A DNA stretch of 64,000 nt from an uncultured Prevotellaceae bacterium. Lineage in GTDB: Bacteria; Bacteroidota; Bacteroidia; Bacteroidales; Bacteroidaceae. Shown in pieces: positions 2,691 to 56,257 of this stretch. The stretch covers positions 96,663 through 160,662 of the forward strand of contig ONNV01000001.1 of the NCBI GenBank assembly GCA_900319225.1, given 5' to 3'. Made by a program: the position numbers and the translations under genes. Under the pieces are notes generated by a model. It made no database searches, had not been told where the DNA came from, and worked only from the letters and a program-made list of their open reading frames with translations. The first letter of the stretch is position 1. The number at the start of each line of letters is the position of its first letter.

Positions 2691-3509
2691 ATGGGATACA
2701 TTACTGAAGACAAACGTAAGGTTACCACACAGCGTCTCAGAGAGATGAAACAGCGTGGCGAGAAGATTGCAATGCTTACCGCCTATGACTACACCATGGC
2801 CAGGATGGTCGATGGTGCCGGTATCGACGTTATTCTGGTTGGAGACTCGGCATCGAACGTGATGGCCGGAAACCAGACTACACTGCCTATTACGCTTGAC
2901 CAGATGATATATCACGCCAAGTCTGTTGTACGCGGCGTGCAGCGCGCCCTGGTGGTTGTGGATATGCCTTTCGGCACCTATCAGATCAATGATTCCGAGG
3001 CTGTTACCAATGCCATCAAGATAATGAAGGTGTCACATGCCGATGCACTCAAACTGGAAGGCGGCGAGGAGATCCTGCCTCAGGTGCGTCATTTGATAGA
3101 AATAGGTATCCCTGTTATGGGACATCTGGGTCTGACACCCCAATCCATCAATAAATTCGGAACATATGCCGTTCGCGCCAAGGAGGAGGCCGAGGCTGAG
3201 AAACTCATTTCCGATGCCCACAAACTTGAGGAGGCAGGTTGTTTCTCAATCACACTGGAGAAAATCCCCGCCAAGCTTGCCGAGCGCGTAGCCAAGGAGG
3301 TCTCAATTCCTATTATAGGCATTGGTGCAGGAAACGGCGTTGACGGTCAGGTCCTGGTATGCGCCGATATGCTGGGCATGAACAACGATTTCAGTCCCCG
3401 GTTCCTGCGTCGTTACGCCAACCTCTACGAGACCATCACCAGCGCGGTAGGTCATTACGTGGAGGATGTCAAGAACTCTGACTTCCCCAACGAGAAGGAA
3501 CAATACTGA
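2691..3509 (+). CDS. panB: 3-methyl-2-oxobutanoate hydroxymethyltransferase (ketopantoate hydroxymethyltransferase)
   Basis: The 272-aa ORF reads ..[57 protein letters not shown].., a typical PanB signature and length. Confidence 0.93.
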
Positions 3510-3576
3510 TGACCCATTAGGGACAGTCCCCCTGTGCCATCTTGCATGGCACAGGGGGACTGTCCCTAATGGGTCA
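3510..3576. terminator. Bidirectional hairpin with a perfect 31-bp stem and 5-nt loop, shared by convergent panB and the DEAD-box helicase gene
   Basis: TGACCCATTAGGGACAGTCCCCCTGTGCCAT (3510-3540), loop CTTGC, then the exact reverse complement (3546-3576). The helicase stop codon is the last 3 nt (TCA at 3574-3576). A second in-frame TGA for panB is the first 3 nt. Confidence 0.75.
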
Positions 3577-4785
3577 TTTCTTGGGTTTGTGGAAGAACTT
3601 CCTTTTCCCTTTGTAGGGAGTTCTGGGACGTTCTGCTTTGTACTCCGGAGCCTCGCCAAGCTCGGCGGGGAGGGGGACTTTGTAGACGTCTTTGCCTAGG
3701 AAACGCTCTATCTGGCGGAACTTGGGCTGGTCGTCCAGGCTGATGAAGGTGATGGCGCAGCCTTCGGCGCCGGCGCGGGCGGTTCGGCCTATGCGGTGGA
3801 CGTAGTCTTCGGGGTCGTGGGGGACGTCAAAGTTGATGACAAGGTCTATGTCATCTATGTCTATTCCGCGTGATACGATATCGGTGGCTACGAGTATGTT
3901 GATGTGACCGTTGCGGAACTTGTGCATGATTTCATCACGCTCTGCCTGAGCCAGGTCGGAGTGCATCTCGCCTACGTTCAGACCAAGGCGGCGCAGTGAT
4001 TTGGTTATCTCCTTGACCTTGAGTTTGGACGATGCAAACGCAATTACCCTCTTGGGGGCGTTGGCGCTGAACAGACTCTGTATGATGGGCAGTTTCTGGG
4101 CCTCGTAGCATACGTAGGCGGCCTGCAGGATCTTTTCGGCCGGCTTGGAGACGGCCAGTTTGACCTCTACCGGGTTGTGCAGGATGGTGCGGGCCATGCG
4201 CTGTATCTCATCGGGCATGGTGGCGGAAAAGAGCATGTTCTGGCGCTTGGCGGGCAGCTGCTTTACAATCTGCATGATGTCATCATAGAAACCCATATCG
4301 AGCATGCGGTCGGCCTCGTCAAGGATAAAGAATGATACCTTGCTCAGGTCTATGTTGCCCAGACTGATATGGCTGATAAGACGGCCGGGAGTGGCTACCA
4401 CGATATCGGTACCCATGGCAAAGCCGCGTTTTTCCTGCTCAAAGCGGATTCCGTCATTGCCTCCGTAGACGGCGGTTCCGGATATGTTGGTGAAGTAGGA
4501 GAATCCCTCTATCTGCTGGTCTATCTGCTGTGCCAGCTCGCGGGTGGGTACCATGATGAGGCAGTTCACCGCGTCCTGGGGGTAGTCTCCACTTGACAGT
4601 TTGTCAAGTACGGGCAGCAGGTAGGCGGCGGTCTTGCCGGTTCCGGTCTGTGCTATGCCTATAAGGTCATGTCCTTCTAAAAGTATGGGTATGGCTTTCT
4701 CCTGGATGGGAGTGCACTCCTGAAAATTCATTGCGTCTATGGCGTCAAGTAACGCCGGCTGGAAATCTAGCTCGTCAAATCTCAC
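3574..4785 (-). CDS. DEAD-box ATP-dependent RNA helicase (RhlE-like)
   Basis: 403 aa with a Q-motif region, AQTGTGKT (motif I), DEAD (..FFILDEADRMLD..), SAT and HRIGRTARAG motifs. Confidence 0.92.
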   Translation of the reverse strand: MRFDELDFQPALLDAIDAMNFQECTPIQEKAIPILLEGHDLIGIAQTGTGKTAAYLLPVLDKLSSGDYPQDAVNCLIMVPTRELAQQIDQQIEGFSYFTNISGTAVYGGNDGIRFEQEKRGFAMGTDIVVATPGRLISHISLGNIDLSKVSFFILDEADRMLDMGFYDDIMQIVKQLPAKRQNMLFSATMPDEIQRMARTILHNPVEVKLAVSKPAEKILQAAYVCYEAQKLPIIQSLFSANAPKRVIAFASSKLKVKEITKSLRRLGLNVGEMHSDLAQAERDEIMHKFRNGHINILVATDIVSRGIDIDDIDLVINFDVPHDPEDYVHRIGRTARAGAEGCAITFISLDDQPKFRQIERFLGKDVYKVPLPAELGEAPEYKAERPRTPYKGKRKFFHKPKK

Positions 4786-4795
4786 GGTGAAATGG

Positions 4796-5914
4796 TTATT
4801 TTGGTGCTTTTATGTAAAGGAATATAGCAATCGGTATGTAAATGAAATTGGGAAGCCACTCGGCCATGAAAGCAGACATGGAGCCTGTTATGGCAAAGTT
4901 TGATGAGACTATCTGGAATAGTATGTATCCGAAACTCAGTCCCAGACCTATGCCCAGATAGAGTCCCATGCCGCCCTTACGTTTACGGCTGGAGAGCGAT
5001 ACGCCCATCACGGTCAGGATGAATGCGGCGAATGACATGGCGTAACGTTTATGGTACTCAATTTCAAAGTCCTGTATGTTGCCCATGCCGCGCTCTTTCT
5101 GGCGACGTATGTATTCACGCAGTTCGGCCGATGACATGGTCTCCTGCTGGCCGTTCTCAATCAAGAAATCTGCCGGCTCAAAGTGGATTATGGTATCCAT
5201 GTCATTGCCCTGGCTTATGGATTCTATGTTGCTTGAAAGGTCACGGATCAAATAGTTGCGCACTTTCCAGTGGTATTTATCGGCTGCGAGAGTGTCATAT
5301 GTGACGCTGCGGGCGGTCATGTGTGATACCAGTTTCTTGCCTTCAAACTTGTCAAGCGTAAAGCGGTAACCGGTACGGGTCTCGTGGTTGTAGCTCTCCA
5401 TGTAGGCTATGATACCTTCCTCAACTTCAAGCTGTATGTTGTAGGCGCCACTTGAGTTGTCACGGTTGTAGTGGCTCATTCCGTACTTGTTCTCAAACGT
5501 AAGTCTTTTTATGCTGGCCTTGGGTATGACCTGTGATCCCAGATAGAGGGTGAAAGCGGCGATAAGGGCTGCGGACAGCATATACGGAATCATCATCCTC
5601 TTAAAACTCATTCCCGTTGAGAACATGGCGATTATCTCAGAGTTCTCGGCCAGTTTTGAGGTGAAGAATATGATGGCTATGAATACGAACAGCGGACTGA
5701 AAAGATTGATGAAATAGGGGATAAAGTTGAGATAGTAATCAAATATGATCTCCTTGGCCGATGCTGCATTGAGCTTGTCAATCTTCTCATTGAAGTCAAA
5801 GACCACCAGGATCACGATGATGAGCGCAATGGTAAAGAAGTAGGTTCCAAGGAACTTCTTTATGATGTACCAGTCAAGGCGTTTGAGCAGTCTGTGTCTG
5901 AAAGGACTTTTCAT
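4796..5914 (-). CDS. LptF/LptG family permease (YjgP/YjgQ)
   Basis: 372 aa. The N-terminus LLKRLDWYIIKKFLGTYFFTIALII is typical of LptF/G, with multiple TM segments flanking a large periplasmic loop. Confidence 0.8.
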   Translation of the reverse strand: MKSPFRHRLLKRLDWYIIKKFLGTYFFTIALIIVILVVFDFNEKIDKLNAASAKEIIFDYYLNFIPYFINLFSPLFVFIAIIFFTSKLAENSEIIAMFSTGMSFKRMMIPYMLSAALIAAFTLYLGSQVIPKASIKRLTFENKYGMSHYNRDNSSGAYNIQLEVEEGIIAYMESYNHETRTGYRFTLDKFEGKKLVSHMTARSVTYDTLAADKYHWKVRNYLIRDLSSNIESISQGNDMDTIIHFEPADFLIENGQQETMSSAELREYIRRQKERGMGNIQDFEIEYHKRYAMSFAAFILTVMGVSLSSRKRKGGMGLYLGIGLGLSFGYILFQIVSSNFAITGSMSAFMAEWLPNFIYIPIAIFLYIKAPK

Positions 5915-5926
5915 ATCTCCAAAAGG

Positions 5927-7066
5927 TTACAGGCGTTGCATTACTCGTTTTACCATGACATCCTTCCAGGTGTGGTAATCATCGGCCAGGATATGCTTGC
6001 GGGCCTCGCCTACGAGCCACAGGTAGAATGCCAGATTATGTATGGATGCTATCATCAGTGCAAGGTACTCCTGCGCCTTGAACAGGTGATGCAGGTATGC
6101 CTTGGTGTAGAGGGCGTCAACATATGAAGCTCCATCGGGCTCGATGGGATCAAACACATCCTCCCATTTCTTGTTGCGTATGTTTATGATGCCGTCCTTG
6201 GTGAACAGCATGGCGTTACGGCCGTTGCGGGTGGGCATGACGCAGTCAAACATATCCACTCCAAGGCCGATAGCCTCAAGTATGTTGGCTGGGGTGCCTA
6301 CACCCATCAGGTAACGGGGTTTGTCCTTGGGCAGGATGTCATGCACCAGGTCAATCATCTCATACATGACATCTGTGGGCTCACCTACGGCCAGTCCGCC
6401 TATTGCATTGCCCTCGGCTCCTTTTGATGCAATATATTCGGCCGATTTGGCTCGCAGGTCCTTGTAGACGCAGCCCTGGACAATGGGGAACAGGGCCTGA
6501 TGGTATCCGTACTTGGGCTCTGTTGAATTGAAACGCTCAAAACAGCGGTCAAGCCAGCGGTGAGTACGCTCCATGGACTGCTTGGCATACTTGTAATCGG
6601 CAGTGCCGGGACAGCACTCATCGAACGCCATGATGATATCGGCACCGATGGTACGCTCTATATCCATGACGCGCTCAGGGGTGAACAGGTGGCGTGATCC
6701 GTCTATGTGTGACTGGAATTTGACACCCTCCTCAGTCATCTTCCTGAGTCCCGTTAGTGAGAATACCTGGAAACCGCCGCTGTCAGTGAGCATGGGGCGG
6801 TCAAATCCGTTGAATTTATGCAATCCACCGGCCTTTTCCAGCACATCCAGACCCGGACGCAGGTAGAGGTGGTATGTATTACCCAGTATGATCTGGGCTT
6901 TTATGTCATCCTTGAGCTCATTCACATGGACGGCCTTGACCGAGCCTACGGTACCTACAGGCATGAAAATGGGGGTCTCAATAACTCCGTGGTCTGTGGT
7001 AATGCGTCCGGCTCTGGCGTGGCTGGTGCCGTCTGTGTGCTGAAGTTCAAATGTCAGTGCGTTCAA
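5927..7066 (-). CDS. tgt: Queuine tRNA-ribosyltransferase
   Basis: 379 aa: ..ARAGRITTDHGVIETPIFMPVGTVGSVKAV..LGNTYHLYLRPG..TDSGGFQVFSL.. Confidence 0.95.
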   Translation of the reverse strand: MNALTFELQHTDGTSHARAGRITTDHGVIETPIFMPVGTVGSVKAVHVNELKDDIKAQIILGNTYHLYLRPGLDVLEKAGGLHKFNGFDRPMLTDSGGFQVFSLTGLRKMTEEGVKFQSHIDGSRHLFTPERVMDIERTIGADIIMAFDECCPGTADYKYAKQSMERTHRWLDRCFERFNSTEPKYGYHQALFPIVQGCVYKDLRAKSAEYIASKGAEGNAIGGLAVGEPTDVMYEMIDLVHDILPKDKPRYLMGVGTPANILEAIGLGVDMFDCVMPTRNGRNAMLFTKDGIINIRNKKWEDVFDPIEPDGASYVDALYTKAYLHHLFKAQEYLALMIASIHNLAFYLWLVGEARKHILADDYHTWKDVMVKRVMQRL

Positions 7067-12595: not shown

Positions 12596-12670
12596 CGGGA
12601 TGTAGTTCAGTCCGGTTAGAATGCCTGGTTTGGGACCAGGTGGTCGAAGGTTCGAATCCTTTCATCCCGA
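12596..12670 (+). tRNA. tRNA-Pro (anticodon TGG)
   Basis: Manual cloverleaf: acceptor CGGGATG/CATCCCG, anticodon stem CCTGG/CCAGG with loop TTTGGGA, T-arm GAAGG-TTCGAAT-CCTTT, discriminator A. No encoded CCA. Confidence 0.9.
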
Positions 12671-12674
12671 CTAT

Positions 12675-12710
12675 GAAACAGTGGCTCAAATAGCTGCTGT
12701 TTCTTTTTTT
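12675..12710 (+). terminator. Rho-independent terminator after tRNA-Pro
   Basis: Stem GAAACAG (12675-12681) / CTGTTTC (12697-12703), followed by a T7 run. Confidence 0.55.
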
Positions 12711-12741
12711 GCAATCTTAGCTGATTTTGGAAAGATTCCTG

Positions 12742-12759
12742 TCGGGATGAAAGGATTCG
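12742..12759. repeat. Inverted copy of the 3' end of tRNA-Pro (18/18 nt)
   Basis: TCGGGATGAAAGGATTCG is the exact reverse complement of 12653-12670 (T-loop, T-stem and acceptor 3' strand of the adjacent tRNA-Pro). Confidence 0.9.
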
Positions 12760-12780
12760 GACCGTGGGGCAAGGCCCCAC

Positions 12781-12894
12781 TTACCTCCTTTTATTTTGCT
12801 ACGCAAAAGCGCTCCATTTCATTTCGCTTGGCGGCCCTCCGGGACCGCGGTCTCGTTCGTCGCCTCACTCGCTCCGATACGTTTGTCCCTGCGT
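12781..12894. repeat. tRNA-downstream conserved element, copy 1 (homologous to 44984-45096)
   Basis: Shared blocks: TACCT.CTTTTA.TTTGCTA.CGCAAA ... GCGGCCCTCCGGGACCGCG.TCTCG ... CTCGCTC ... ATACGTT.G..CCTGCGT. Confidence 0.8.
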
Positions 12895-25701: not shown

Positions 25702-25710
25702 ATCAGTAGA

Positions 25711-25749
25711 TGTGGAATTGGGGACTGTCCCCAATTCCACATTTTCACA
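25711..25749. repeat. GGGGAC-N-GTCCCC hairpin repeat (TGTGGAATTGGGGAC T GTCCCCAATTCCACA + TTTTCACA)
   Basis: 15-bp perfect arms. The same element, with an internal insertion, recurs at 43258-43312. Confidence 0.85.
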
Positions 25750-26917: not shown

Positions 26918-26999
26918 GGAGGGAGCCAAAGGGGACGGTTCTATTTGGCCCCTTTTTGAAAAATGGGGCCAAATAGAACCGTCCCCTTTGGCTCCCTCC
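26918..26999. repeat. 35-bp perfect-stem hairpin of the GGGGACGGTTCTATTTGGCC family (terminator position)
   Basis: GGAGGGAGCCAAAGGGGACGGTTCTATTTGGCCCC (26918-26952), a 12-nt loop, then the exact reverse complement (26965-26999). It starts 4 nt after the stop of the 27003-27437 gene. Confidence 0.85.
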
Positions 27000-42812: not shown

Positions 42813-43325
42813 ATGTCCCAAGACAGAAAGCAGGAGGGCTTGACCGCCCTTGGTAACAAGACAGCATATTCAAACACTTACAATCCGGATGTCCTGGAGG
42901 CGTTTGAGAATCTTAATAAGGAGAATGACTACTGGGTGCGTTTTAACTGCCCGGAGTTTACAAGTCTCTGCCCTATAACCGGACAGCCCGATTTTGCGGA
43001 GATTCGCATCAGCTATATCCCTGATGTAAAGATGGTTGAGAGCAAGTCACTCAAACTCTATCTGCACAGTTACCGCAATCACGGCGGATTCCACGAGGAC
43101 TGCGTGAACCGCATCATGAAGGACCTTATCAAACTGATGGATCCCAAGTACATAGAGGTGACCGGTTTCTTTGTTCCGCGTGGCGGCATATCGATATATC
43201 CCTATGCCAACTACGGCCGCAAGGGCACCAAGTACGAGACTCTTGCCGAGCAGAGAATGTGGAATTGGGGACAGTCCCCTTTTCCACATGTCCCCAATTC
43301 CACATTTTCACATGACAAAGACTGA
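42813..43325 (+). CDS. queF: NADPH-dependent 7-cyano-7-deazaguanine (preQ0) reductase
   Basis: ..[58 protein letters not shown]... The last ~22 codons ([22 protein letters not shown]) are encoded by a hairpin repeat. Confidence 0.9.
43258..43312. repeat. GGGGAC-N-GTCCCC hairpin repeat (expanded copy of 25711-25749)
   Basis: TGTGGAATTGGGGACAGTCCCC-TTTTCCACATGTCCCC-AATTCCACATTTTCACA. Confidence 0.85.
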
Positions 43326-43896
43326 ACTTGTATTGAGTTGGTTGGAGGAGCACGGGATAGAGTACCAGGTGCACTATCATCCGCCGTTGCCCACCATTGA
43401 GGAGGCTCTGGCTTATTGGAAAAACATAGACTCCACGCACTGCAAGAACCTGTTTTTCCGCAACCACAAGGGTAACCGTCACTATATGGCCAGTTTTGAG
43501 TGCCATAAGAACCTGGATATCCACGGCCTGGAGCATATAGTAAGGCAGGGTAAGCTGAGTTTTGCCAGCCCCGAGCGTATGGACCGATGTCTGGGCGTTG
43601 CTCCCGGATCAGTCTGCGCCTACGGCCTAATAAATGATATGAACCTGGTGGAGCACGCGGCTGTCATCGCGCCCGACGGCTCACGTGATTTTGGTCAGGT
43701 GAAAGAGGGTGTGAACCCCAAGGAACTGTTCGATAACGGTCACCGCGTAAAATACTTTCTTGACGCAGACCTCAAGAACGCCGATCGCGTATCATTCCAC
43801 CCCTGCGAGAATACAGCCAGCGTTGTAGTAAGCAATGCCGGCTTTATGCGCTTCCTGGAGATCTGGGGCGGTGAGGTGGAGTGGATTGAAGTGTAA
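43312..43896 (+). CDS. YbaK/prolyl-tRNA-synthetase-associated (aminoacyl-tRNA deacylase) domain protein
   Basis: 194 aa from [47 protein letters not shown]... The track ORF start (43171) lies inside queF. The ATG at 43312 is in frame and lies at the end of the repeat. Confidence 0.7.
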
Positions 43897-43931
43897 AATG
43901 TGGAAAAGGGGACAGTCCCCTTTTTCACATT
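43897..43931. repeat. GGGGAC-N-GTCCCC hairpin repeat at a convergent gene junction
   Basis: AATGTGGAAAAGGGGA-CAG-TCCCCTTTTTCACATT (one arm mismatch). It starts 1 nt after the ybaK-like stop and ends 1 nt before the stop of the minus-strand gene. Confidence 0.8.
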
Positions 43932-44714
43932 TCAGCGAATTATATCCCTAATTATGTCGGTGGGGACGGATAGGGTGGTGATACCCGTTGCGTACGGTGC
44001 AATGTCGTACTGGTTGAATATGAAATCAATGGTATCCTCACGTATCTCAAAGTTCTCCGGTACAAACATGGGCTCATTGCTGAAATAGCCGTGCTCGTCA
44101 AGCTCGTCGCGGCTGCTGCATTCGGCATATTCCAGGAGTAACTGATCCAGGACCGGAATCAGTTTGCTCTCATATCCCGGTTTGAAATAGTTGTCAAGTG
44201 TCACTACGCTGCCATCCTCAAGACGATAGTTGCGGCAGGTAATGAACGTGCCGCCGTGGGCACCGCCCGTATATTGGTAGAAATTGATGAAATGACCTAT
44301 TATGTCCTTGCGGTTGCCGTAATGGACCTCAGTATTAAGCACGTATTCATAGTCAATGTTACGAGGCTCAAAACCCTCCTCCTTGGCATAACGTATCTGC
44401 TCCTTGTTATCCTCTTTGAATATGTTAATCACGGAGTCTATGAATGATATCATCGCGGCACGTACATCGGTAGTACGTTTTCCGAACATGAATTCCGATA
44501 TGTCCCGGTTGAAAGCGTCGGCAAATACCGTATCTGCACCGTGTGCCTTGAGTACGTGCATGTCAAACGAGCATGACGGGTGCTCCTTGCCTTGGGTGTA
44601 GGGCAGGGTCTCCTTGAATGATACATACTGGAACGCATAATCGTCACCCTTGCTACGGCAGGCGGCAAGTGACAGTATTGCGGTGAGCGCAATTATGATT
44701 TTATGGGCTTTCAT
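43932..44714 (-). CDS. DUF3298/DUF4163-type lipoprotein
   Basis: MKAHKIIIALTAILSLAAC lipobox, with the start trimmed to M10 of the track ORF. YQYTGGAHGG is the hallmark of DUF3298. Confidence 0.7.
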   Translation of the reverse strand: MKAHKIIIALTAILSLAACRSKGDDYAFQYVSFKETLPYTQGKEHPSCSFDMHVLKAHGADTVFADAFNRDISEFMFGKRTTDVRAAMISFIDSVINIFKEDNKEQIRYAKEEGFEPRNIDYEYVLNTEVHYGNRKDIIGHFINFYQYTGGAHGGTFITCRNYRLEDGSVVTLDNYFKPGYESKLIPVLDQLLLEYAECSSRDELDEHGYFSNEPMFVPENFEIREDTIDFIFNQYDIAPYATGITTLSVPTDIIRDIIR

Positions 44715-44810: not shown

Positions 44811-44818
44811 CTATCTTT
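44811..44818 (+). promoter_or_regulatory. -7 promoter box (TAtcTTTG) upstream of tRNA-His
   Basis: TATCTTTG lies 30 nt upstream of the tRNA 5' end. Confidence 0.55.
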
Positions 44819-44847
44819 GCACCGCTTTAACAGAAAAGCGGTATATG

Positions 44848-44924
44848 GTGCCCGTAGTTCAGTTGGTTAGAGCGTCAGATTGTGGTTCTGAATGTCGTGG
44901 GTTCGAGTCCCACCGGGCACCCCA
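44848..44924 (+). tRNA. tRNA-His (anticodon GTG), with G-1 and an encoded CCA
   Basis: Acceptor GTGCCCG/CGGGCAC with an extra 5' G opposite the discriminator C. Anticodon stem TCAGA/TCTGA with loop TTGTGGT. T-arm GTGGG-TTCGAGT-CCCAC. CCA at 44922-44924. Confidence 0.9.
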
Positions 44925-44961
44925 AAAGAAAAAAGAGGTCATTCGGCCTCTTTTTTCTTTT
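44924..44961. terminator. 15-bp-stem hairpin terminator after tRNA-His
   Basis: AAAAGAAAAAAGAGG - TCATTCGG - CCTCTTTTTTCTTTT. Confidence 0.65.
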
Positions 44962-44980
44962 GGGGTGTCCGGTGGGACTC
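44962..44980. repeat. Inverted copy of the 3' end of tRNA-His (18/19 nt)
   Basis: GGGGTGTCCGGTGGGACTC compared with the reverse complement of 44905-44923 (GGGGTGCCCGGTGGGACTC). Together with the terminator this makes 44905-44980 a near-perfect palindrome with 34-bp arms. Confidence 0.9.
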
Positions 44981-44983
44981 CAG

Positions 44984-45096
44984 TACCTTCTTTTAGTTTG
45001 CTAACGCAAACCCGTTCACTTCGTTCACTCAGCGGCCCTCCGGGACCGCGTTCTCGCTCCAAGCATTCGCTCGCCCCAATACGTTAGCACCTGCGT
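44984..45096. repeat. tRNA-downstream conserved element, copy 2 (homologous to 12781-12894)
   Basis: The same ordered blocks as copy 1, including the identical 19-mer GCGGCCCTCCGGGACCGCG and the terminal CCTGCGT. Confidence 0.8.
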
Positions 45097-45280
45097 GAAT
45101 ATCCAATACCTACGGCATTGGATTGAATGGGAGAACATGCGGATTACCCAGCCATTAAAATGGCTGGCTACCCATATCTTGTGCCTAGCGGCACAACAAC
45201 ATGCCGTAGGCATGGGATTAAGGTAGCCAGCCAATTCATTGGCTGGATCTTTCCAATTATAAATACATTTCCCTTTTGGT

Positions 45281-56087: not shown

Positions 56088-56141
56088 GGACTTATTTTTA
56101 GAGACTGCAAAGTTAGTAAAAAGACTGCGACTTGCAGCCAT

Positions 56142-56257
56142 GGGGACGGTTCTATTTGGCTCCTAGGTGCAGAATTCTTTCTGACTGCGTATCAGGGCCA
56201 AATAGAACCGTCCCCAGTGGCCCTGATCTTACCGAGGTGCCAAATAGAACCGTCCCC
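56142..56257. repeat. Cluster of three GGGGACGGTTCTATTTGGC units (one forward, two inverted)
   Basis: The forward copy is at 56142-56160 and reverse-complement copies are at 56197-56215 and 56239-56257. An additional inverted pair ATCAGGGCC/GGCCCTGAT (56191-56199 / 56219-56227) brackets the middle copy. Confidence 0.85.

Follow-up and report, generated by a model that had tools for sequence, protein, structure and literature searches.

A Putative Clade-Wide 3' Module of Stable-RNA Genes in Rumen and Gut Bacteroidales: A Mirrored Gene End Paired with a ~111-nt Dispersed Repeat

The 3' end of the tRNA-His gene in the window (the whole 64,000-nt stretch of DNA analysed here) forms part of a near-perfect palindrome, and five bases past that palindrome begins a ~111-nt repeat that we call X. 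The same succession of stable-RNA gene, terminator loop, mirror image of the gene end (a' below) and X recurs at dozens of loci and, judged from sequence comparison, appears to be a 3' module found throughout a clade of Bacteroidales from rumen and gut. The inverted fragment is thus no free-standing device of tRNA-His; it is the inner edge of a repeated element that had been missed in the original prediction. The best reading is that the tRNA-His palindrome did not evolve base by base as a device, and we give roughly even chances to an origin as a DNA-level inverted duplication, linked to X, that arose when a strand folded back at the terminator hairpin and switched template.

Results

The palindrome at tRNA-His

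An inverted-repeat search places the palindrome arms at 44905–44938 and 44947–44980 (Table 1); they are 34 nt each, 97% complementary and separated by an 8-nt loop, in agreement with what had been read from the letters at the outset. The pairing is unbroken from the loop to the tRNA T-loop with 33 of 34 positions paired, and the sole mismatch (G44917 against T44968) would be a G-U wobble in plus-strand RNA. ARAGORN carries the tRNA-His(gtg) gene through to 44924, and the Rfam tRNA model stops at the discriminator (44921). The tRNA portion of the left arm comprises the final four T-loop nucleotides, the 3' strands of the T-stem and acceptor stem, the discriminator and the encoded CCA; the acceptor strand and CCA that had been assigned to the arm are thus present, and of the T-arm, also assigned to it, only this 3' part is. 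Upstream of the gene stands a candidate promoter element, TATCTTTG, that is kept in orthologues L177, L147 and L236; the Bacteroides −7 promoter consensus that it matches is reportedly the TAnnTTTG of Bayley and colleagues from 2000.

The centre of the palindrome is a terminator-like hairpin (T1) that is predicted to fold as 17 bp (−21.3 kcal/mol, z = −7.3), followed by a U-run (UUUUUUCUUUU at its end). Its A-tract is a perfect match to its T-tract, its stem has only 3–4 G-C pairs, and it is not among the sites returned by a consensus terminator scan; being symmetric, T1 could, on this fold, work in both directions. The other terminators in the window are short and imperfect, and a copied gene end is seen only in the two palindromes beside X. 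Folding of the whole tRNA-His palindrome gives z = −10.75 as RNA and z = −13.4 as DNA, with 0 of 200 shuffles folding as well, and it could extrude as the long cruciform that had been envisaged. By our own arithmetic, about 1e-12 such arm pairs are expected by chance per 64 kb. The palindrome is also present in L236 and L237, independent assemblies of a close relative, and is therefore not an assembly artefact. An Rfam search of the palindrome returned only spurious matches to miRNA precursors, all below threshold.

Table 1. Features of the tRNA-Pro and tRNA-His loci in the window
Feature	Position	Strand	Evidence or remark
tRNA-Pro(tgg) gene	12596–12671	+	CCA not encoded
Terminator-like hairpin and T-run 3' of tRNA-Pro	12675–12710	+	Off-centre between the arms
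a' of tRNA-Pro (GGATTCGGACC)	12741–12763	+	Inverted copy of the last 23 nt, one mismatch
G+C-rich hairpin between tRNA-Pro a' and X	12764–12780	+	
X at tRNA-Pro	12784–12894	+	nhmmer E = 1.2e-29; aligns with the tRNA-His copy
TATCTTTG, putative promoter element 5' of tRNA-His	44812–44819	+	Direct reading; matches the −7 promoter consensus
tRNA-His(gtg) gene	44847–44924	+	ARAGORN 44848–44924; Rfam RF00005, 65.9 bits over 44848–44921; encoded G-1 (44847) and CCA (44922–44924)
Palindrome left arm	44905–44938	+	Last 20 nt of the tRNA (44905–44924), then A-tract and left half of the terminator stem (44925–44938)
T1, putative terminator hairpin	44925–44961	.	Fold; A-tract, GAGG stem, loop, CCTC stem, T-tract
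Loop at the palindrome centre, TCATTCGG	44939–44946	.	RNA fold pairs 2 more bases, leaving a 4-nt loop
a' of tRNA-His	44961–44980	+	Reverse-complement copy of 44905–44924, one mismatch (T44968)
X at tRNA-His, full length	44986–45096	+	nhmmer E = 1.3e-24, model positions 1–111
Repeated hairpin modules "Y" right of X	45101–45246	.	45101–45123, 45145–45170 and composite palindrome 45148–45246

The parallel locus at tRNA-Pro

The likeness to the tRNA-Pro locus that had been pointed out earlier is real: arms of 23 nt (12649–12671 and 12741–12763) with one mismatch lie 69 nt apart. The mismatch, A-to-G in a', is common to L097, L056 and L243. Among orthologues with the Spt gene upstream, L097, L030 and L249 (90–95% identity) carry both a' and X and L251 and L252 neither, and in L243 a' is kept and the position of X holds only a T-rich stump. 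The centre measures 69 nt in the window, whereas the arms of L097 are perfect over 35 nt, so the centre is able to turn over with a' remaining in place.

Anatomy and family of repeat X

Both copies of X in the window stand 3' of an inverted fragment, in loci that can be aligned, and they have in common an exact 19-mer, GCGGCCCTCCGGGACCGCG, that occurs nowhere else in the window. Read from left to right, the tRNA-His copy consists of CC and a T-run, hairpin 1 (44996–45011), a variable hairpin 2, the core hairpin GCGGCCCTCCGGGACCGCG (45032–45050), a pyrimidine-rich right half and a CCTGCGT end. The window and the Bacteroidales loci described below together yield 61 copies, every one intergenic. 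Their left end is fixed (59 of 61 begin at model positions 1–4) and their right end ragged (27 of 61 end early, at positions 46–110), and the right-terminal ACCTGCGT is tandemly repeated in some (L027, L077 and L093). In the alignment hairpin 1 covaries cleanly, by Watson-Crick pairs only (GC 16, UA 10, AU 8, none broken), which argues that X itself is under some constraint; the fold of its whole length is weak (plus-strand z = −1.9, minus-strand z = −0.6). The clear clustering of copies by locus that was expected is seen only weakly, with 81% identity between copies at the same locus across genomes and ~76% between copies at different loci within one genome, and because of these values the family appears to be old and free of any recent burst.

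The junction at which the locus-specific part of a' gives way to X falls within sequence derived from the T-loop. A derived junction GGATTCG-GTAAACC-TC is common to the tRNA-Ser(cga), tRNA-Ser(tga) and tRNA-Pro loci, and a second type, TCG-GGGACC, to those of tRNA-His, tRNA-Val and others; the left end of X, (G/A)(G/A)ACC, resembles the reverse complement of the T-arm GGTTC and looks as if it derived from a tRNA T-loop. On its right, X at tRNA-His is followed by the Y hairpins, which also follow a short X at the tRNA-Met locus in L099.

Two possible roles for X were considered and set aside. Its plus strand, which is rich in pyrimidines (35% C, 22% G), is only mildly suggestive of a rut-like Rho-loading site, and as a Bacteroides-type promoter its T-run and hairpin 1 read TAnnTTGC, one base off TAnnTTTG, on the plus strand, with no such match on the minus strand. 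Searches of Rfam 15 gave no match to X at E ≤ 10 (tRNAs alone pass at the gathering score), a' plus X had no BLAST match in plasmid and phage collections, and the X core had one chance hit among viral contigs, in a phage of 73% G+C. We found no earlier description of X or of inverted tRNA ends in the literature searched, core sequence included, and a dispersed repeat that is systematically paired with the mirror of an adjoining stable-RNA gene end appears to be undescribed.

tRNA-His loci with and without X

A metagenome scan with a 36-mer of tRNA-His found 139 gene copies with 116 distinct downstream sequences. In the 97 distinct Bacteroidales tRNA-His loci among them that have no X, the median terminator arm is 14 nt and the tRNA is entered in only two cases, by 3 and 7 nt; at X-bearing loci the palindrome enters the tRNA by 12–20 nt.

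Orthologues of the window's locus were recovered through the same upstream DUF3298 gene (76–88% amino-acid identity). L236 and L237 have the window's structure, and their a' shares its C-to-T mismatch and adds two more; the shared mismatch means that a' was inherited, and the extra ones are drift. L177, L147, L145 and L203 also have a' and X, with trailers and stems quite unlike those of the window. The differing trailers of the X-bearing orthologues are still paired with their mirrors at 15/17 to 18/18 positions (15/17 to 17/17 in L177/L147 and L203; in L145, where indels break the outer arms, only the 13-nt inner stem can be scored, at 13/13), and where a gene ends in CCC rather than CCCC the mirror likewise has three C's. 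In these orthologues a' thus follows each gene's own 3' C-run and trailer, which is, broadly taken, the covariation that the original prediction had proposed to look for. The match of a' is 82–95% (85–95% for the whole gene-end mirror) where the neutral DNA right of X is unalignable, and such conservation needs either recurrent re-copying or selection.

Other orthologues have ordinary gene ends. L240 and L229 have plain terminators with ~10-nt arms and neither a' nor X, the terminator of L240 being unrelated in sequence and its right flank different; L238 has 9-nt arms, a homologous trailer, a natural imperfect terminator and no a' or X, and its tRNA gene is inverted relative to DUF3298. The structure that had been expected at orthologous tRNA-His loci is therefore present in L236, L237, L177, L147, L145 and L203 and absent from 95 of the 97 other Bacteroidales loci and from more distant orthologues. 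The neighbours of tRNA-His are common chromosomal genes and encode DUF3298, an ion channel, a Na/Ala symporter, GH9, a YbaK-like protein and QueF, with no recombinase, transposase, integrase or reverse transcriptase among them, and beyond X the orthologous loci continue as normal chromosomal DNA.

Genes that carry a' and X

A scan for the 19-mer in one genome per species gave 115 loci, from which 66 chance matches in high-G+C taxa were discarded; the 49 kept are from low-G+C Bacteroidales of the rumen and of horse, deer and sheep gut. A tRNA lies on the same strand 50–190 nt 5' of X in 36 of 51 oriented copies, with 10 specificities and 14 anticodons represented (Ser, Val, Pro, Gln, Arg, Met, Lys, Cys, Tyr and His), and in all 36 the best inverted repeat is that between the tRNA's own 3' part (11–43 nt) and the segment directly before X. 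A search with the X profile in the 49 loci and the window finds X at most 350 nt downstream of 40 of 42 tRNA/tmRNA genes, in most cases in the gene's own orientation, and each of these genes is mirrored by an inverted copy of 11–43 nt from its 3' part. In the 49 loci, a' stands before X at every site with a readable upstream gene.

Stable RNAs other than tRNA are served in the same way: tmRNA precedes X in L018, L069, L091 and L095, and in L002 X follows the 5S rRNA at the end of an rRNA operon, with an inverted copy of 34 nt and palindrome arms that are split by ~70 nt of non-palindromic DNA. Covariation thus holds in a broad sense as well, and at this level emphatically, a' matching its upstream gene over the 10 tRNA specificities, tmRNA and 5S rRNA. 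A protein gene is found before X in L018 and L095, its stop codon within the palindrome arm; groEL was ruled out as its identity, since it encodes a 233-aa hypothetical protein, and "highly transcribed" therefore applies to the RNA genes alone.

The palindromes centre on the terminator loop and have arms of up to ~50 nt, and the clear ones usually end within ~20 nt of the left end of X. A G+C-rich hairpin, different in sequence each time, lies between a' and X in about one third of the loci. In a few loci a' occurs with a stump of X or without X (L243, L244, tRNA-Met in L002 and tRNA-Asn in L012). Three individual loci have further peculiarities: in L091 8 nt of the tmRNA end recur as a direct repeat on the two sides of X, in L012 the tRNA-Asn end is directly repeated, and in L241 a serine recombinase gene adjoins tRNA-His.

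The inverted copy runs beyond the tRNA end into the trailer, and no CCA is added to it where the gene has none. These properties, and the way in which a' follows the C-run of the gene, identify the template as the DNA of the gene and not the mature tRNA. Mismatches in a' are common to close relatives and accumulate in others.

Discussion

A proposed origin by fold-back template switching

Template-switch (quasipalindrome) mutations are reportedly the subject of work by Ripley in 1982 and by the Lovett laboratory. In an origin of this kind, all steps of which are inferred, a nascent DNA strand would first fold back at the terminator hairpin and copy the local gene end; at tRNA-His this would extend the terminator hairpin outward, the right arm continuing into a' of the trailer and of the last 20 nt of the gene. 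The strand would then switch template to a copy of X at another locus, often inside the T-loop sequence that is common to all tRNAs, and the point of its return would vary. Subsequent switching from arm to arm would keep the inner arms perfectly paired, and the outer copy would drift because the tRNA arm cannot change. Template switching between the arms of inverted repeats homogenises and expands them and can make perfect hairpins in one step (PMC8794818, PMC13100816, PMC5941160).

At tRNA-His and in most of the palindromes the derived sequence is indeed the reverse complement of the hairpin flank and contiguous with it. Fold-back switching, the simplest of the fitting explanations, would account for why the copy is specific to its gene and includes the trailer, why inner arms stay paired despite divergence of the orthologues, why tRNA and tmRNA genes are preferred, why X has a fixed left and a ragged right end, and why terminal repeats, target duplications and enzymes are absent. 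By itself it leaves unexplained the non-contiguous palindromes (tRNA-Pro and 5S rRNA), the long persistence of a' and the constraint on X; with arms ~70 nt apart at tRNA-Pro and at the 5S rRNA of L002, a single fold-back from the present terminator would not be sufficient without later turnover. We also count against it the few loci in which a' is accompanied by a stump of X or by none, which would allow either order of a' and X, as well as the lack of an identified enzyme or donor copy and the ~76% identity of paralogues, which gives no sign of recent activity. An allele with the module would be expected to exceed an empty one by the palindrome's right part and X, with microhomology at the joints (often TTCGAACC) and no target duplication; the tRNA-His and tRNA-Pro orthologues include no empty site with both flanks conserved, so the polarity and the exact inserted segment are known by inference only.

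An extension of this origin, to which we assign a low probability, is that X and the mirror together form a new type of DNA that spreads by itself and, needing no transposase, homes to stable-RNA genes: the terminator hairpin would act as primer and the T-loop as homing microhomology, and the module would be retained as an insulator of highly transcribed genes. In a bolder variant, the transcript of X would be directed against its own tRNA by the adjoining antisense fragment, which would serve as a programmable guide.

Alternative explanations

It is unlikely, in our judgement, that a' was selected at the RNA level for its pairing with the tRNA 3' half in read-through transcripts. In variants of this idea it could be a second, very strong terminator together with the T-run of X, a mark for RNase III-type cleavage of mis-terminated precursors, or a block to antisense transcription into the tRNA gene. 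The predicted folds do differ as this explanation would have it. RNA that ends at the T-tract (44961) has the cloverleaf and the 17-bp terminator hairpin as its minimum-energy structure, and read-through RNA to 44990 is predicted to form a 36-bp hairpin (−83.6 kcal/mol) in which the T-arm, the acceptor stem and so the cloverleaf are lost, much as the original prediction had supposed; in thermodynamic terms, read-through in either direction would zip into a hairpin of ~36 bp. The position of the X T-run a few bases 3' of a', the G+C-rich hairpin with T-run in about one third of loci, the persistence of a' and of perfectly paired trailers across species and the plus-strand wobble at the window's sole mismatch fit an RNA role as well. 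The mismatches at large, however, do not: of the 90 counted over 27 palindromes, G-U pairing would be possible on the plus strand for 28, on the minus strand for 34 and on neither strand for 28, a split with no strand bias and no sign of selection for an RNA hairpin, and close relatives have 2–3 mismatches that are uncompensated. The spacing from stem to T-run is often 4–10 nt or more, which is non-canonical for a terminator, few transcripts should include a' at all given its position beyond a complete terminator, and the structure is missing from nearly all other Bacteroidales tRNA-His genes. On these modelled folds, we take sequestration of the tRNA 3' half to be a physical consequence of the palindrome and not a demonstrated function.

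Quite unlikely, we believe, is the explanation that X is a non-autonomous mobile element whose terminator-hairpin targets are chosen by an HUH/RAYT-like hairpin-nicking transposase or by a reverse transcriptase. The 3' end nicked at the foot of the hairpin would prime itself and copy the upstream gene end before X was joined to it, and a' would be the signature of insertion. Such an element would fit the orientation of X with the upstream transcription unit, the contiguity of a' with the terminator in most loci, the richness of the window in other REP/REPIN-like palindromic repeats and the 8-nt direct repeat of the tmRNA end around X in L091. The fixed left and variable right ends would suit it too, but ordinary deletions on an unconstrained side also explain the latter. 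Against it, X has no terminal inverted repeats of the MITE type, its left end (CC + T-run + AGTTTGC) and right end (ACCTGCGT) being non-complementary, and its flanks show no consistent duplication of the target. No transposase, integrase or reverse transcriptase lies near the tRNA-His locus, paralogues within a genome are nowhere near-identical (~76%), and X was not found in the plasmid, phage and viral collections.

We think it very improbable that the structure is the remnant of site-specific integration into a tRNA gene, be it an attL/attR scar of an integrase or a folded single-strand att hairpin of the CTX-phi or integron cassette type. The 3' ends of tRNA and tmRNA genes are classic integration targets, and Williams reportedly described, in Nucleic Acids Res in 2002, integrase identity blocks in such genes; copy lengths near 20–24 nt (from the T-loop) and 36–44 nt resemble these blocks, and an integrated CTX-phi-type junction has its parts in the same succession, from target through short loop and inverted copy of the target to the body of the element. 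The serine recombinase beside tRNA-His in L241 and the direct repeat of the tRNA-Asn end in L012 would also be in keeping with it. However, in 46 loci the 1.2 kb that follow X repeat the tRNA end directly over 6–9 nt at best, just as shuffled controls do, and no tyrosine or serine recombinase gene is near the tRNA-His locus. The outer ends of the palindromes are local gene sequence that varies by locus, with no common core motifs, and an element would have to possess its own hairpin for every one of over a dozen targets; 5S rRNA and a protein gene are followed by this arrangement as well, and the trailer mirrored in a' is local, so that no arriving element could have brought it. That the palindrome is due to chance or to faulty assembly has practically no probability, in view of the expected number of such pairs per window, the shuffles, the independent assemblies and the dozens of loci.

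Implications

If fold-back template switching is indeed the origin, the 3' flanks of nearly all tRNA and tmRNA genes and rRNA operons have been reshaped across an entire clade of Bacteroidales from rumen and gut, by a process usually seen as rare, scattered events and here coupled to a repeat family that appears to be undescribed. The loci, of which each genome offers dozens as independent replicates, would be a natural system for studying the origin and upkeep of perfect long hairpins, how repeats find stable-RNA genes, and whether palindromes insulate the most heavily transcribed genes. In practice, the palindromes and X break short-read assemblies (several copies are at contig ends), can be misread as pseudo-tRNAs, att sites or miRNA-like hairpins, and point to places of rearrangement, L238 with its inverted tRNA-His gene being one.

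Comparison with known systems

The closest likeness in mechanism is to template-switch quasipalindromes, in which, as here, new sequence is the exact reverse complement across an existing hairpin, arms stay paired though orthologues differ, and the replisome suffices. Those events are sporadic, whereas the present ones are found at nearly every stable-RNA gene examined in one clade, reach 20–44 nt into an essential gene and are tied to a 111-nt repeat. Large fold-back rearrangements likewise involve a nascent strand that turns back at a short inverted repeat, copies its own template and then makes microhomology switches, but they span kilobases to megabases and change copy number, and here tens of bases form a stable local palindrome.

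Integrase att sites resemble our loci in their tRNA/tmRNA 3'-end targets and in a duplicated 3' block of the gene of ~20–45 nt. Att blocks, however, are direct repeats flanking an element that bears an integrase; a' is inverted, 16–70 nt from the gene, and comes with no direct repeat and no integrase. The folded single-strand sites CTX-phi attP(+) and integron attC, reportedly those of Val et al. in 2005 and Bouvier et al. in 2005, are recognised as hairpins and share the arrangement of target-like site, short spacer, inverted site and element body. They differ in having conserved recombinase-binding cores and one fixed target, whereas the arms here are those of any upstream gene, its private trailer included. 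In E. coli, the distal repeats of the tyrT operon contain the last 19 nt of tRNA-Tyr, and so also repeat a tRNA 3'-end fragment downstream of the gene; they are direct, in tandem, confined to a single locus and without a dispersed family, and a' is inverted and linked to X.

REP/BIME and REPIN sequences are extragenic palindromic repeats of Proteobacteria that are moved by RAYT transposases (PMC2817692). Like these extragenic modules, X is multi-copy, non-coding, hairpin-rich and placed 3' of genes, and it forms mosaics with other modules, both as X plus Y hairpins and beside the GGGGAC/GTCCCC palindromes elsewhere in the window. Unlike REPs, it is ~111 nt long with several different hairpins, strongly prefers tRNA, tmRNA and 5S rRNA genes, is oriented with the upstream unit, and is accompanied by a copy of the neighbouring gene end, which REPs are not. 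Our overall verdict from these comparisons is that the tRNA-His structure is probably best described as a quasipalindrome extended by template switching, set within a REP/BIME-like mosaic of extragenic repeats.

tRNA-His Gene Ends and Palindromes at Other Loci

The tRNA-His gene of the window encodes the extra 5′ G (G-1) that is typical of tRNA-His (at 44847, facing discriminator C44921), and it also encodes its CCA, which is encoded neither in the orthologue L177 nor in tRNA-Pro. At the L238 locus (GCA_045534955.1, 2866-2942) the entire tRNA-His gene and its promoter are inverted relative to the flanking gene; the DUF3298 of this relative is 80% identical, the tRNA-His terminator is natural and imperfect, and neither a mirror copy (the inverted copy of the gene's own 3′ end) nor the ~111-nt repeat X is present at this tRNA-His locus.

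In a metagenome tRNA-His locus, L139, a perfect palindrome with 26-nt arms extends 7 nt into a different tRNA-His and is followed by a G+C-rich, repeat-like sequence other than X, which was itself not detectable at this locus; palindromes that reach into a tRNA may occur with other elements in other lineages. The X-less relative L245 (~3930-4260) is arranged differently downstream of tRNA-Pro: the trailer lies in a long-range palindrome that encloses other hairpins, after which come two tandem repeats of ~75 nt (CCCCCCTTAAGGATGCGCGAACGCAGTGAGCGAATCCTT...).

Probable Integration, Opposite Orientations and Signs of Decay

A large serine recombinase gene lies immediately downstream of tRNA-His in metagenome contig L241 (1-1519 and 1470-1546) and is absent from L240, which is otherwise identical; the recombinase region is probably an integrated element that uses the same tRNA-His. 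At a tRNA-Asn locus (L012, 3950-4143, minus strand) the terminator is followed by a short inverted copy of the tRNA end and, ~100 nt past that copy, by a 22-nt direct repeat of the tRNA 3′ end, a pattern like that of a classical att scar.

Two tmRNA loci, L091 (4439-5100) and L018 (4500-5019), have in common a block of terminator, 9-nt mirror copy and short X that matches almost base for base and lies in opposite orientations relative to the tmRNA. The L091 copy of X (4854-4917, minus strand) is flanked on both sides by the 8-nt direct repeat GCTCCACA, and beyond it come a 44-nt mirror copy and a second X. Evidence that mirror-copy/X sites decay and rearrange comes from L007 (1020-1100 and 1900-2010): only an internal part of a mirror copy is left downstream of 5S rRNA, with X lost, and at another place in this locus X and a mirror copy of tRNA-Val are orphaned, with no tRNA upstream of them.

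Repeats Adjoining X and a Second Palindrome Family

The motif at the right end of X, (GA)ACCTGCGT(TAG), is present in tandem copies in L027, L077, L093 and L112; L027 has at least five, ~60-110 nt past the X core (6085-6103, minus strand). The window also contains a second family of long palindromes, centred on GGGGAC(N)GTCCCC (Table).

Table. Hairpin modules to the right of X at the His locus and GGGGAC(N)GTCCCC palindromes, in window coordinates.
Feature	Position	Description
Additional hairpin modules	45101-45246	CCAATACCTACGGCATTGG, CCAGCCATTAAAATGGCTGG, composite palindrome with 40-nt arms
GGGGAC(N)GTCCCC palindrome	3509-3577	32-nt arms, perfect
GGGGAC(N)GTCCCC palindrome	25710-25742	
GGGGAC(N)GTCCCC palindrome	26918-26999	40-nt arms
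GGGGAC(N)GTCCCC palindrome	43253-43309	
GGGGAC(N)GTCCCC palindrome	43896-43932	
GGGGAC(N)GTCCCC palindrome	56141-56216	

In other genomes (L001, L007 and L051) truncated copies of X are followed by hairpins related to this family, which in the window is similar to REP/REPIN elements. At a tRNA-Met locus (L099) a short X is followed by the same hairpin modules as at the His locus, and at both loci X and its right-hand modules form a repeat mosaic that resembles a BIME.
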